Shown: piece by piece, positions 1,727-7,600 of the stretch
How positions within the stretch are numbered: position 1 is the stretch's first letter
How the letters are laid out: every line of letters begins with the position of its first letter
The notes under the pieces: model-generated
Told to the model about the DNA's origin: nothing
Database searches by the model: none
What the model saw: only the letters and a program-made list of their open reading frames with translations
Position numbers and translations under genes: made by a program
Assembly (NCBI GenBank): GCA_951406725.2
Contig: OX597817.1
Coordinates: forward strand, 88,970,001-89,034,000
Direction: 5' to 3'
Source of the DNA: Octopus vulgaris
Lineage: Eukaryota
DNA length: 64,000 bases

Positions 1727-1857
1727 ATGGGTACAGGACGTCACAAACTGTAAACAACATGAAATACGAAAACAAAAGAATTGAATACATAAACAACGAC
1801 AGAAACAAATGGATAACAGGGCAATGTTGTTTATTTTTTGCGACACCCTGTACCCAT
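1727..1857. mobile_element. Short foldback or MITE-like element with ~21-bp imperfect terminal inverted repeats
   Basis: ATGGGTACAGGACGTCACAAA ... TTTGCGACACCCTGTACCCAT, in a TA-rich context. Confidence 0.55.
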
Positions 1858-1860
1858 ATA

Positions 1861-1895
<35 letters not shown>

Positions 1896-2015
1896 ACAAT
1901 CAAGGAACGGCCATAATAGGCCATTCACCCACTAGAAATAACAGCCAAAAGCTTTAACCGCAAAATAACGTTAATTCCGTAAACCAGGAGAAAATTGAAA
2001 AACATTTACCCTGTA

Positions 2016-2122
2016 ATTTCTTAGACGATGCACCGTTTCATCTTCTGTTTAATGGAAAACTAACCTGATTAAATTAAATCAAGCCAATCTACCATAGGCC
2101 CTTAGAATCATCAGTAAGAAAT
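2016..2122 (-). ncRNA. Type I hammerhead ribozyme with extended stem II
   Basis: Reverse complement of 2759-2865. Confidence 0.8.
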
Positions 2123-2758
2123 AGCCAAGCCGGAACAGATATTTTTCACGAGGCATTCTCGTTGCTACCTCGTCAATATCTGACCTAAAATTTTCAAATC
2201 GTCGCACTCGCGCCAAATTTATCGGCAGCAAATAAATATAAGCCGCCGATTCCATTACGGAATTAACCAGAAAATTCATAATTAATCAATATAGGGTGGC
2301 AAAAAAAAATTTTGTAGAATTCTTTTGCCACCAGCGGCCTAGTGGGAAAAAATTAAATAGTCATAAACTATTTTAAGTTCAACATCAACAATCAAGGAAC
2401 GGCCATAATAGGCCATTCACCCACTAGAAATAACAGCCAAAAGCTTTAACCGCAAAATAACGTTAATTCCGTAAACCAGGAGAAAATTGAAAAACATTTA
2501 CCCTGTAATTTCTTAGACGATGCACCGTTTCATCTTCTGTTTAATGTAAAGAATTCTAGAAAATTCTACAAAATTTTTTTGCCACCCTATATTGATTAAT
2601 TATGAATTTTCTGGTTAATTCCGTAATGGAATCGGCGGCTTATATTTATTTGCTGCCGATAAATTTGGCGCGAGTGCGACGATTTGAAAATTTTAGGTCA
2701 GATATTGACGAGGTAGCAACGAGAATGCCTCGTGAAAAATATCTGTTCCGGCTTGGCT

Positions 2759-2865
2759 ATTTCTTACTGATGATTCTAAGGGCCTATGGTAGATTGGCTT
2801 GATTTAATTTAATCAGGTTAGTTTTCCATTAAACAGAAGATGAAACGGTGCATCGTCTAAGAAAT
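2759..2865 (+). ncRNA. Type I hammerhead ribozyme with extended stem II
   Basis: Stem I ATTTCTTA/TAAGAAAT; core CTGATGA (2767); 68-nt stem II; GAAA (2842); stem III ACGG-TGCA-TCGT; GTC cleavage triplet 2855-2857. Confidence 0.8.
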
Positions 2866-3253
2866 TACAGGGTAAATGTTTTTCAATTTTCTCCTGGTTT
2901 ACGGAATTAACGTTATTTTGCGGTTAAAGCTTTTGGCTGTTATTTCTAGTGGGTGAATGGCCTATTATGGCCGTTCCTTGATTGTTGATGTTGAACTTAA
3001 AAATAGTTTATGACTATTTAATTTTTTTCCCACTAGGCCGCTGGTGGCAAAAGAATTCTACAAAATTTTTTTTTTGCCACCCTATATTGATTAATTATGA
3101 ATTTTCTGGTTAATTCCGTAATGAAATCGGCGGCTTATATTTATTTGCTGCCGATAAATTTTGCGCGAGTGCGACGATTTGAAAATTTTAGGTCAGATAT
3201 TGACGAGGTAGCAACGAGAATGCCTCGTGAAAAATATCTGTTCCGGCTTGGCT

Positions 3254-3360
3254 TTTTCTTACTGATGATTCTAAGGGCCTATGGTAGATTGGCTTGATTT
3301 AATTTAATCAGGTTAGTTTTCCATTAAACAGAAGATGAAACGGTGCATCGTCTAAGAAAT
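3254..3360 (+). ncRNA. Type I hammerhead ribozyme with extended stem II
   Basis: Second + copy, 495 bp downstream, with one stem I substitution. Confidence 0.8.
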
Positions 3361-3594
3361 TACAGGGTAAATGTTTTTCAATTTTCTCCTGGTTTACGGA
3401 ATTAACGTTATTTTGCGGTTAAAGCTTTTGGCTGTTATTTCTAGTGGGTGAATGGCCTATTATGGCCGTTCCTTGATTGTTGATGTTGAACTTAAAAATA
3501 GTTTATGACTATTTAATTTTTTTCCCACTAGGCCGCTGGTGGCAAAAGAATTCTACAAAATTTTTTTTTTTTTTTTTTTGCCACCCTATATTGA

Positions 3595-3687
<93 letters not shown>

Positions 3688-4108: not shown

Positions 4109-4111
<3 letters not shown>

Positions 4112-4820
4112 CAAACGGGAAGGAAGAGCTATTTTCATCATCCTTGTGGCTATGGCGAAAGAATGTATCTGGTGGACGCGTCTGAAAGGATTGGAGACAA
4201 ACACTTTCCTCTCTGGTCAATCTCTCATCAACTTCTTCAAGTACCACTTGAAAAGGAAAGTGAGAGTAGAGAGGTAAGTTTTGTCTAGCGAATGTTTTAA
4301 AAAAAGATGGGTGAATGTAGCAAGGATGGCACGTATGAATGACGAAGCCACCTTGAGCATAATCCTATGAACCCAGAAATTGAAAACAGAGGGTTACCCA
4401 CTTGCAAACAAATGTGGTAACATATAACAATATTGACCAAGGTTACCGTGTTCTTTTTCGTAGGCTTTTCTTCCCACGGATAAACCTTACTTGCTTTCCC
4501 CTTTACACCATATATCATAACACTGTGATACACGATCCCTATTGATCGTTTTTTTTTCATCTTCCCCTTTTTTCTTCTTTTTTCATTTCTCTTTTCTTTT
4601 GTTCCTTTTCCTTTTCTTTTTTTTCTTTTTCTTTTTTATTTTATTTATTTCTTTATTTTTTTTGTTCTTTTCTTCCCTTTTACGATCCCTCTTGATCGAA
4701 AACCTACGCCACCCCTTTTTTTGTTTCTTTTGTTTTTTGTTTTTTTCATCCCCCAAAAGAAAAGCTCTACCTTGTAACTTGTCCCATCTGTGTGCAGCCC
4801 TGTGTGGCCAATAAAGAAAC
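4109..4820 (+). mobile_element. Tx1-like LINE, 5'-truncated 3' end
   Basis: Highly similar to ~917-1521 (FKREGRAIFIILVAMAKECIWW...), ends AATAAAGAAAC, preceded by (TATC)n. Confidence 0.9.
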
Positions 4821-4889
4821 TTATATGTATATATGGATGTTTATAATAATAATAATGATAATAATAATAATAATTATTAGTATTATTAT

Positions 4890-5359
4890 TGTACAGCTTC
4901 TAACGTTAGAGATGTACTACAGTGTCTGCTGTTCACTACCAGTGAACTAAAGTAACACCTCTTATTTTTCGAGCACCTTCCGGAGTATTCGAGTGGTTCC
5001 AAGAAGTGTTGTTTTCTGCAAGTGCTCCACCCTTATTGCAGCCCCTATTTGTTCCACCTACTTCTCGAGAGTTTTGTTCAGTGTTCCCAGCGCTCCGAAA
5101 ATCATTGATACTGCTGCTACCTTTTTCATCGATCACAACTGCTTAACTTCCCAAGCTAACCTGTCATATCTCTCGACTTTTCTTTCTTCCTTATCGCATA
5201 CCTTGTTGTCAGCTGGGCATGCTATGTCTATGATCCAGCATAGTTTGTTTTCTTTCTCAATTAAAACTATGTCCAGCCCTCTATTATCAATCTCATGGTC
5301 GCACTGAATCATAAAATCTCATAAGATCTTTACATTTCTATTTTCGACAATGCCTTCAA

Positions 5360-5360
<1 letters not shown>
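4890..5360 (-). mobile_element. R4/Dong-like LINE 3' fragment (restriction-like endonuclease)
   Basis: Minus strand reads DIVLIEKENKLCWIIDIACPAD; similar to 21190-21620; flanked by (TAA)n/(TTA)n. Confidence 0.8.
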
Positions 5361-5464: not shown

Positions 5465-7600
5465 CAGTAGTCTTATTTTTATCACGTGCTTTCACTACAA
5501 TACCGAGCGCATCTCTGTGTGCCTTGGGTATGTGCTGTGGTTTGTTGTGGTACTCTTATTTTCACTGTATTGAAAGTGTTTGACGTAGGATATGTGCAGT
5601 GCCTAGTAGTGCTATTTCTGTATATTGTATATCTTGTAAGTACTGGAGTTTTTGTTATGTATTTGTCTGAATGTTTTTAAATCATACCTAATACGCTTAC
5701 TTTGACAGGAATTGTTTCTATTTTTAGGCACCACATTCGAGTTACCTCCATTCCCAGATCTTTGTTCTTTTGAAAGTTTCTCCGTTTCTTTTAGAGAAAC
5801 GTTGTGATCTATTTGTATTGATACATCGATTTGGAAGCATTTTTTCTTGGTGATCTCTGACAACTATATCCGGCTTATTGGCCTTAAGTTCTCTATCAGT
5901 GTGTATTGGTATATCCCATAGTGTGGTTGCTTTCTCATTTCCTGTGGCATTTTCTGGTGTGTGCCTATACCATCTTTTTCTTTTGTTATTCCATAGTGTT
6001 CTCATAGCTTCCAATGTATATAGATTCCGACTCTGTCGTGTCTGTGAATATATTCCTTCTTAGCCAGGACTGGGCAGCCAGAGATAATGATTTATTGTTT
6101 CTTGTCCATCTCCACATATTCTGCAATTATTTGTATTTCTTTTCATCACATGTTTTTAGTGATTTCAGTCTCTGCTTTGACTCCTGAGCTTCTCAGCTAT
6201 TGTTAAGGTTTTGCTTGTCTATTTCTTTTCTATTTAGCTTAACCCAATATGTACCATATAGGGGCTTTTCTTACCATCGTTTTATCATGATACGTTGCAG
6301 ATCCAGTTTTAGTTTGGGTTTCAGTTGTTTTACAGCTTGTGTTGTTTTTTTTCTTCATAGTTGTTAGGTACTTTGACTTCTTTCTTGTATTTGTCTGCTC
6401 CTTAAAAACTGAAAACAGTTTTTTGTTTTGTTCGTGCTTTGTGGCTATTTGTATTAGTTTTCCTTACTTCCGAAGTAGGTGTTTCTGTAGTTCTATGGTG
6501 CGTATTTTCTAATAGTTTTCTAACTGCATAAGGCCTCTACCACCTTCAATACGTTGTATATATAGCCTTTCTATGTCAGATTTTGGATGGTGCATCCTAA
6601 ATCCTGTCATTATTTTTCAGGTTTTCCCGTCTATTTTGATTAGTTCATTTATAGTCCAGTTAAGAATATTGTAGCTTATAACTTATAACTGGGACGGCTA
6701 GAGTGTTGATACCTATTATCTTGTTTTTTCGCATTGAGCTGTTTTCAGTATTAATCTAAATCGTCTATAGCATTCCTTTCTTATTCTCTTTCATTTGTGT
6801 TTGTTGTATTGTATCTAGCTAAATGATTCCTAAGTATTTGTATGTCTGGCTTTAGTTTAATTCTCTTATTTCATTTGCTTTATCTAGTGTGATGTCGCTA
6901 CTCTTAACTATTGGGTTGATGCATAATTATTGCGGCTTTTTCATTGTTTCCAGGTTTTAGATTTGTTTCGTATCCCACCCCCGTTCATATTTTTGTCTGT
7001 GGTGTTCTGGTTTGGTACATTTTGCACATCATTATACATTCCTACAGTCTGGGTTTGTTGTCTTTCGTTGTTTACTTCGTTTTTGTTGGACATGTTACGT
7101 CTGTCTTCGTATTTTAAATTCCAGTGCTTATGATATCTTTTGGCATTGCTGTGTGACTACCATCTACGTTTTCCTCATGTATTTTTCCTTTTAAGTGTTC
7201 TATTTCTATTTCTGATAAGTTTTTTGTTTTGAGAATATATTTCCGTATAATAGCTAGTTTATTAAGATTCATTGCTGTATCTAAATTCTTATCTAGGTTA
7301 TTCTTCTTCCAAATTTTATTTGTATATATTGTGTGTTTCCTTTCAGTGGGTAGAGCACTGCCATAAAATAAGCGTGTAAGGTTGAAATATATTCCTCACC
7401 TGTCCATTTTATGTGACATGAGGAATAACGTCCGGCCCTTTATTTTGATGGTCATAATTTTCGTTGGGTACCGATCCGTTCATTTCTGGTGTTAAATGGT
7501 TTTGCACGCGTAGTTTTCCGCACTTTATTTGTAACAAGTTTAAAGTACGTACTTCCCGTTTGTTATCCTTGGGTTGAATAATACGGGTATTATTTAATTT
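5465..7600 (-). mobile_element. R4/Dong-like LINE, degenerate and internally deleted
   Basis: WDIPIHTDRELKANKPDIVV endonuclease motif; MHHPKSDIERLYI...GGRGL; YKYLG; many stops; TTA repeats at both ends. Confidence 0.8.

Follow-up and report, generated by a model that had tools for sequence, protein, structure and literature searches.

The insertion in the window

The window is a stretch of 64,000 nucleotides of Octopus vulgaris (assembly GCA_951406725.2, contig OX597817.1, positions 88,970,001 to 89,034,000), and the features of the repeat insertion that it carries are collected in Table 1. The insertion measures 1.7 kb and, by self-comparison, comprises two opposed arrays, 99% identical, with their 5' ends meeting at an 11-nt insert; the original prediction had taken them for one tandem of about 3.4 units. 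The period of 495 nt that it proposed was recovered by TRF over 2562-3570 (2.0 copies, 98% matches), and the type I hammerheads that it placed at cuts after 2857 and 3352 were identified by motif scan, with CUGAUGA cores starting at 2767 and 3262 and the corresponding GUC sites. The insertion contains three complete hammerheads, two of them in series on the plus arm only. The minus arm holds one complete hammerhead and another truncated at the junction, so that only the plus arm could release a monomer.

Table 1. Features of the insertion and of its borders, in window positions
Feature	Coordinates	Strand	Details
Left (TA)n run	1856..1891	none	presumed target site
Left arm, 1.34 units (locus L070)	1892..2550	minus	5' end at monomer position 461
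3' end of left arm, fixed end E1	1892		monomer position 132, counted from the cleavage site
Complete type I hammerhead motif	2016..2122	minus	core 2114-2108, predicted cut 2024/2023; motif scan and match 2024-2515
Head-to-head junction	2547..2561		11-nt insert repeating neighbouring unit sequence
Right arm, 2.1 units	2562..3599 (start about 2548)	plus	TRF, motif scan, self-comparison
3' end of right arm, fixed end E2	about 3599		monomer position 238-241
Hammerhead 1	2759..2865	plus	core CUGAUGA 2767-2773, GUC site after 2857; helix I of 7-8 bp; helix II with U.U closing mismatch and ~60-nt extension; helix III capped by palindromic UGCA
Predicted 495-nt monomer between the two cleavage sites	2858..3352	plus	
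Inferred priming site E1	2975..2989	plus	hairpin, then UUGAUU, then AU; mostly unpaired in the predicted circle
Inferred priming site E2	3083..3098	plus	hairpin, then UUGAUU, then AU
Hammerhead 2	3254..3360	plus	core 3262-3268, GUC site after 3352
Right (TA)n run	3600..3654	none	

The repeat is dispersed, multi-copy and non-coding and lacks an LTR layout; its units run head to tail within each arm, with one type I hammerhead motif apiece. The longest ORF inside the monomer has 66 aa, and the RT plus GIY-YIG ORF of an autonomous Penelope-like element is absent from the window repeat. A fold-back artefact of the assembly was rejected on sequence grounds, since the arms are unequal in length and phase, the flanks differ and the ends are fixed. 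A plain satellite or a MITE was also rejected, because the inner junctions vary and the two outer ends are different.

Other elements were identified close by in the window. Two related 3' fragments occupy 1-1530 and 4111-4825, each beside (TATC)n, and comprise an RT C-terminus and a U-rich 3' region ending AATAAAGAAAC; they presumably derive from an L1/Tx1-like element. LINE-like fragments, possibly of a microsatellite-targeting element, lie on the minus strand at 4890-5360 and 5465-6000 between (TTA)n runs.

The family and its ribozyme

The original prediction of a young, dispersed and structured type I hammerhead retrozyme, likely moved by Penelope-like elements, agrees with a family of about 1000 loci that has a conserved fold and a Penelope-type layout. 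The genome contains 2015 exact copies of a 16-nt hammerhead core (control 1), which bears out the dispersal; the first 100 of those listed span 120 Mb and group into 42 loci, giving roughly 1000 loci genome-wide. The DNA search returned at least 272 matches from the best 40 of 1006 candidates, the full-length ones being 95-100% identical. Divergence in the best 40 loci is 0.0036 substitutions per site within an arm, 0.0043 between the arms of a locus and 0.0104 between loci. A sister core, with 300 occurrences genome-wide (control 0), is carried by a 474-nt family about 75% identical and by intermediate variants. Across families the unit measures 474-497 nt; subfamilies differ by up to 25% and arrays are internally uniform. 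A pattern scan for a hammerhead relative with a short helix II gave one irrelevant match.

Sequencing runs under three other species labels also carry the repeat, one of them mostly with a GUA cleavage triplet; among the runs listed with the repeat, none is on record as RNA. Contigs from 4 of 23 listed runs provided coverage and a joint that goes back 495 nt. This joint is no evidence for circles because tandem DNA gives the same one, and neither ends, strand nor circles can be read from contigs.

In 258 parsed cores, position 7 is any of the four bases and the other core positions are kept. Where arrays cross the cleavage site (284 cases), H17 is occupied by C in 233 and by A in 51, G does not occur, and indels are absent (0/284). 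Helices I-III are kept with compensatory changes across 14 aligned variants, namely 13 of 15 cluster representatives (one long-insert and one same-locus unit being left out) and the window unit. In this alignment 94.7% of the cells are paired and 14 pairs are doubly changed, figures inflated by related sequences. Structure conservation is above all 500 shuffles on four of five measures and above only 488 of 500 for pair types; the structure scored is the window's own fold, and many of the pair changes are one family split counted several times. Judged from the variable N7, the exclusion of G at H17 and the covarying helices in these sequences, the hammerhead is under constraint.

The hairpins listed in the original prediction are present, among them the pairing of TTACGGAATTAAC at 2899 with GTTAATTCCGTAA at 3109, and they recur in the MFE fold. 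Folding of the 495-nt monomer in circular mode beats shuffles (z -8.0, 40 shuffles), as do its linear fold (z -6.0) and its antisense strand (z -5.9), while the hammerhead region alone folds no better than shuffles (z -1.67). Rfam gave nothing at gathering score in the window, the hammerhead being missed probably on account of the long helix II, and otherwise one chance match (E 0.04). The window copy is a minor variant with a U.U closing pair in helix II (16 of 258 cores), and its active hammerhead fold is predicted 5.7 kcal/mol above the MFE, against 0-3.9 in 12 other variants; this U.U variant is present in 21 arms and has therefore spread. Helix III is a self-complementary 12-mer, with a predicted -17.5 kcal/mol as a duplex and -0.2 as a hairpin, which together with an amphibian precedent (PMC7229834, in part) makes a double, dimeric hammerhead form plausible. 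E1 and E2 each follow a strong hairpin and both are mostly unpaired in the predicted circle. The third UUGAUU of the monomer sits in a stem and does not serve as an outer end.

Insertion anatomy, candidate enzymes and known relatives

The mapped set comprises 79 loci, 40 scored in the DNA search and 39 further ones in coordinate order on C1. The layout is simple minus-then-plus in 53 and compound in 2, the rest being one-armed or broken; in some of the one-armed loci a stub of the other arm is present. In 68 of the 79 loci each side has a TA run no more than 45 nt away, target site duplications being unreadable inside (TA)n. The array ends had been predicted to be permuted, as the inner ends are; the outer ends are fixed, clustering at monomer positions ~132 (E1) and ~238-241 (E2), ~109 nt apart. 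Typing succeeded for both outer ends in 51 of the 79 loci (30 of the 40 with the best scores, 21 of the 39 in coordinate order), and all 51 have one E1 and one E2, with E1 on the left in 21 and E2 on the left in 30. One end was typed in 24 loci and none in 4.

The same pairing was identified beyond this set. Junctions of E1 and E2 with TA number 461 and 631 genome-wide on the forward strand (controls 0), the reverse-strand counts being inflated by a gap. Positions 1-105.7 Mb of C1 contain 77 end-TA junctions, and the divergent pairs among them are all mixed (20/20), 9 being at loci outside the 79. Both strands occur in 18 of the 42 loci from the first 100 cores listed, all minus then plus by eye. 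Also by eye, 14 of 20 sister-family loci are two-armed and 13 of these are mixed. The exception is L163, with two ends at the E2 position, the left one not at a TA run.

The inner ends are spread round the unit (Rayleigh p 0.02), and none of 106 lies within 5 nt of the cleavage site (2.1 expected). The arms overlap at the inner junction by at least 2 nt in 25 of 53 loci and by at least 4 nt in 15 of 53, against a null of 2.2%, these overlaps being taken from BLAST ends and possibly overestimated; inserts were identified in 17. Arm lengths are similar, with medians of 821 and 745 nt, have a maximum of 5156, reaching about 10 units, and are uncorrelated between arms.

Several single loci present particular arrangements. 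Two complete small E2/E1 insertions are adjacent at L193 (G000:C1:69961876-69963349), 528 nt apart. At the junction L031:3343-3419 a short piece is duplicated in plus and minus orientation, which suggests that templates were switched repeatedly while the ends were joined. An insertion of ~100 bp at G000:C1:66450474-66450574 consists only of an E2 stub and an E1 stub, and many short copies lack the hammerhead.

The two arms of a locus share one haplotype. Of the rare variants in the 79 loci, 41 are carried by every unit of both arms, and fixation confined to one multi-unit arm is not seen; true arm pairs share 0.89 rare variants each, mismatched pairs 0.004. At 43 common polymorphisms discordance amounts to 16 of 1611 calls in true pairs and to 30.5% in mismatched ones, and 10 of the 16 come from three compound or broken loci. 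In only 6 of 29 loci does the opposite arm rank as the nearest of all arms, since many loci are almost the same in sequence.

Candidate enzymes are encoded in the same genome by at least two young families with intact RT and C-terminal GIY-YIG frames (781 and 776 codons), and by several older ones. The two young families are taken to be Neptune-type from their zinc-finger-like linker motif, not from a tree. Such a motif is described for Neptune (PMC8557442, in part). Both families are found in (TA)n with two ends 40-45 nt apart, and their inverted copies with both ends seen have one of each in 4 of 4 cases (L106, L108, L118 and L234); most flanks are too short to reach the ends of the second family. 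No sequence common to the repeat and the pLTR of a partner was identified in these two families or in the other GIY-YIG loci compared, drawn from the best 150 of 6136, 16869 and 18258 candidates, and the UUGAUU end motif is absent from both young families. A 57-nt match near GIY-YIG at L073 was rejected as a pLTR, being itself a retrozyme stub that lies about 1 kb from the GIY-YIG. Hammerhead motif scans of the Neptune-type elements gave nothing, and inspection by eye shows a minimal-type motif in L101 alone. For canonical Penelope elements only one ORF is described. In both Neptune-type families a further frame of ~480 codons lies upstream and overlaps the RT frame (L101-L119 and L223-L237); in the one family tested it gave no match in Pfam. 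The copies of the second family have in common a ~1.6-kb 3' region, largely microsatellite-like (L233:5823-7420).

The original prediction did not recognise the repeat as described, yet its class is already known (PMC7229834; bioRxiv 10.64898/2026.07.22.740005, both in part); the inverted two-arm layout with two fixed ends escaped it. Among the metazoan non-LTR retrozymes of PMC7229834 (in part), axolotl HHR_Amex2 likewise has a short helix III with a tetraloop and a basal U.U pair in helix II. The octopus repeat differs in its ~60-nt helix II extension, 474-497-nt unit, two-armed insertions and fixed paired ends, its circle being predicted only; the terms "inverted", "microsatellite" and "target site" are absent from the main text of that paper. 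The 2026 preprint (Li, Clavereau, Pollet; in part) presents vertebrate non-LTR retrozymes as Penelope derivatives, being tandem type I hammerhead repeats of 51-972 bp that co-occur with Penelope-like elements. Its Penelope link consists of co-occurrence and pLTR homology, whereas here the link is insertion anatomy and pLTR homology was not found in the families compared; "tail" and "orientation" are absent from the portion of its text cited here. The 495-nt unit, predicted to be at the large end of the size range, exceeds the 170-400 nt of PMC7229834 yet lies inside the range of the preprint. The class is thus a known one and the insertion anatomy is apparently undescribed in the literature examined, where neither retrozyme insertions with two arms and fixed ends nor twin priming of Penelope elements was found reported; the supplements of PMC7229834 and of the preprint may hold the family.

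The closest likeness in layout is to the EN+ Penelope-like elements, Poseidon PAc (PMC11167929), Naiad/Neptune (PMC8557442, in part) and those of Adineta (PMC3846280, in part). Common features are the inverted, 5'-truncated, head-to-head copy, a tail present at one end and delimited by two alternative 3' ends, targets that are AT-rich or (TA)n, and two internal RT starts. The octopus repeat differs from them in having no ORF, a canonical instead of a minimal hammerhead, a tail of ~109 nt instead of 30-40, and multi-unit arrays on both arms. The inverted layout prevails here, in at least 55 of 79 loci, whereas in Penelope-like elements it occurs "often".

Twin-primed, 5'-inverted L1 insertions, reportedly described by Ostertag and Kazazian in 2001, arise when both DNA ends prime one RNA, the 5' ends of the arms meeting, often with microhomology. 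In L1 such events are occasional, the position of the second start varies and each arm copies its own part of the RNA, whereas here both starts are fixed, either one may lie on either side, and the arms copy the same sequence repeatedly.

Origin of the two arms

The preferred reading, with a probability of roughly 0.6, is that of a non-LTR retrozyme insertion from a family of about 1000 loci, in which both cut DNA ends were extended by a Penelope-like enzyme on one RNA template, probably circular. The pairing of the ends in 51 of 51 loci, the single haplotype and the microhomology joins fit two-ended priming on one RNA. Uniform arrays over deep subfamily divergence, scar-free crossings of the cleavage site and 10-unit arms fit a monomer circle, and give indirect support to the rolling-circle copying of the original prediction. 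By the logic of target-primed reverse transcription, the variable 5' and fixed 3' ends indicate that the hammerhead-sense strand would be the template.

According to this reading an array would be transcribed and its hammerheads, as their conserved motif suggests, would cut out the monomer, which a host ligase would close (compare PMC7229834, in part). A Penelope-like RT/GIY-YIG protein, probably a dimer, would bind this RNA and cut both (TA)n strands, following PMC11167929. Each DNA 3' end would prime on a few A/U bases at E1 or E2, where the fixed paired ends are observed, and both enzymes would go round the template for 0.1 to 10 turns, the span of the observed arm lengths. The cDNA ends would be joined by microhomology or end joining, as the junction features suggest, templating each other's second strand. 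In PMC11167929 two internal start sites, extension of both strands and a predicted dimer are reported. A tentative proposal, at slightly less than even odds, makes double rolling-circle priming the normal route: a Penelope-like dimer would occupy two similar sites, 109 nt apart, on one circular ribozyme RNA, its subunits would each extend one end of the cut (TA)n and roll round the circle, and the cDNAs would join to complete both strands.

Some observations count against the preferred reading. Neither young Neptune-type family shares sequence or the UUGAUU motif with the repeat, and the tail exceeds the length described for Penelope. A single monomer circle is opposed by four arrays, L039 with period 4, L191 with period 3 and the mosaics L035 and L041, whose patterns could come from multimeric templates or from later DNA exchange. 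Insertion in vitro proceeds without need of hammerhead cleavage, uncleaved RNA being the main substrate (PMC11167929), and 8 of 9 predicted frog retrozymes did not cleave (bioRxiv 10.64898/2026.07.22.740005, in part). The weak predicted hammerhead fold of the window copy, the two E2-position ends of L163 and the 28 of 79 loci without both ends typed are further points on this side.

The alternative that survives best is itself unlikely: two-ended Penelope-type priming on a linear multimer, long and uncleaved, that was transcribed from a single donor array, the hammerhead being active only sometimes or in another role. It accounts equally well for the paired ends, common haplotype and scar-free crossings, and the use of uncleaved RNA in vitro, the mosaic arrays and the weak predicted hammerhead fold of the window copy speak for it. 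Such copying, however, only shortens arrays and passes on unit-specific variants, yet the 41 rare variants are fixed across units; variants common to two arms are never in register from the outer ends (4 cases, with column 220 beside a T run set aside), and the catalytic core is conserved over 25% divergence.

The shared haplotype would also be explained by a single priming event in which the inverted arm arose by fold-back or self-priming and the second fixed end is an endonuclease resolution cut. A fold-back origin has been proposed for Penelope inverted repeats (PMC3846280, in part) and the tail has been ascribed to endonuclease resolution (PMC8557442, in part); exact symmetry at palindromes was identified in 3 of 53 junctions. 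Only 5 of 53 junctions, however, lie within 15 nt of symmetry, where 3.3 are expected, and the longer arm is that of E1 in 24 loci and that of E2 in 25, so that neither end has a fixed first or second role. Both tail ends have been mapped to RT start sites (PMC11167929), and this origin is considered quite improbable.

Slightly less probable still are two RNAs from one active donor locus priming the two ends, or array growth at the DNA level with homogenisation after a short insertion. One donor per germ cell would also match the arms, the periodic variants fit block duplication, and unequal crossover is favoured for array growth by the 2026 preprint (in part). Two RNAs, however, leave the strict E1/E2 pairing without a reason, and homogenisation appears limited, as 162 rare variants are in a single unit and 16 are partly spread, the single-unit ones being biased from G/C to A/T as expected of later mutation. 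Template jumping between linear monomers is disfavoured because the 284 crossings contain no scar.

As a retrozyme alone the repeat is ordinary. That Penelope-like elements move animal retrozymes from circular RNA is so far only a hypothesis (PMC7229834 and the 2026 preprint, both in part), and the steps giving the inverted copy, tail and second strand of Penelope are unvalidated (PMC11167929; PMC8557442, in part). This family is a Penelope footprint on a protein-free and possibly circular template, numerous and with internal sequence markers, and it provides a rule that any model must explain: each of the two start sites used once, and a haplotype common to both arms. It also offers the existing in vitro assay a small, defined RNA whose two start sites are mapped. 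If double rolling-circle priming is true, about 1000 loci would record how Penelope makes its inverted repeats, tails and second strand, and would be direct genomic evidence for circular-RNA templates.
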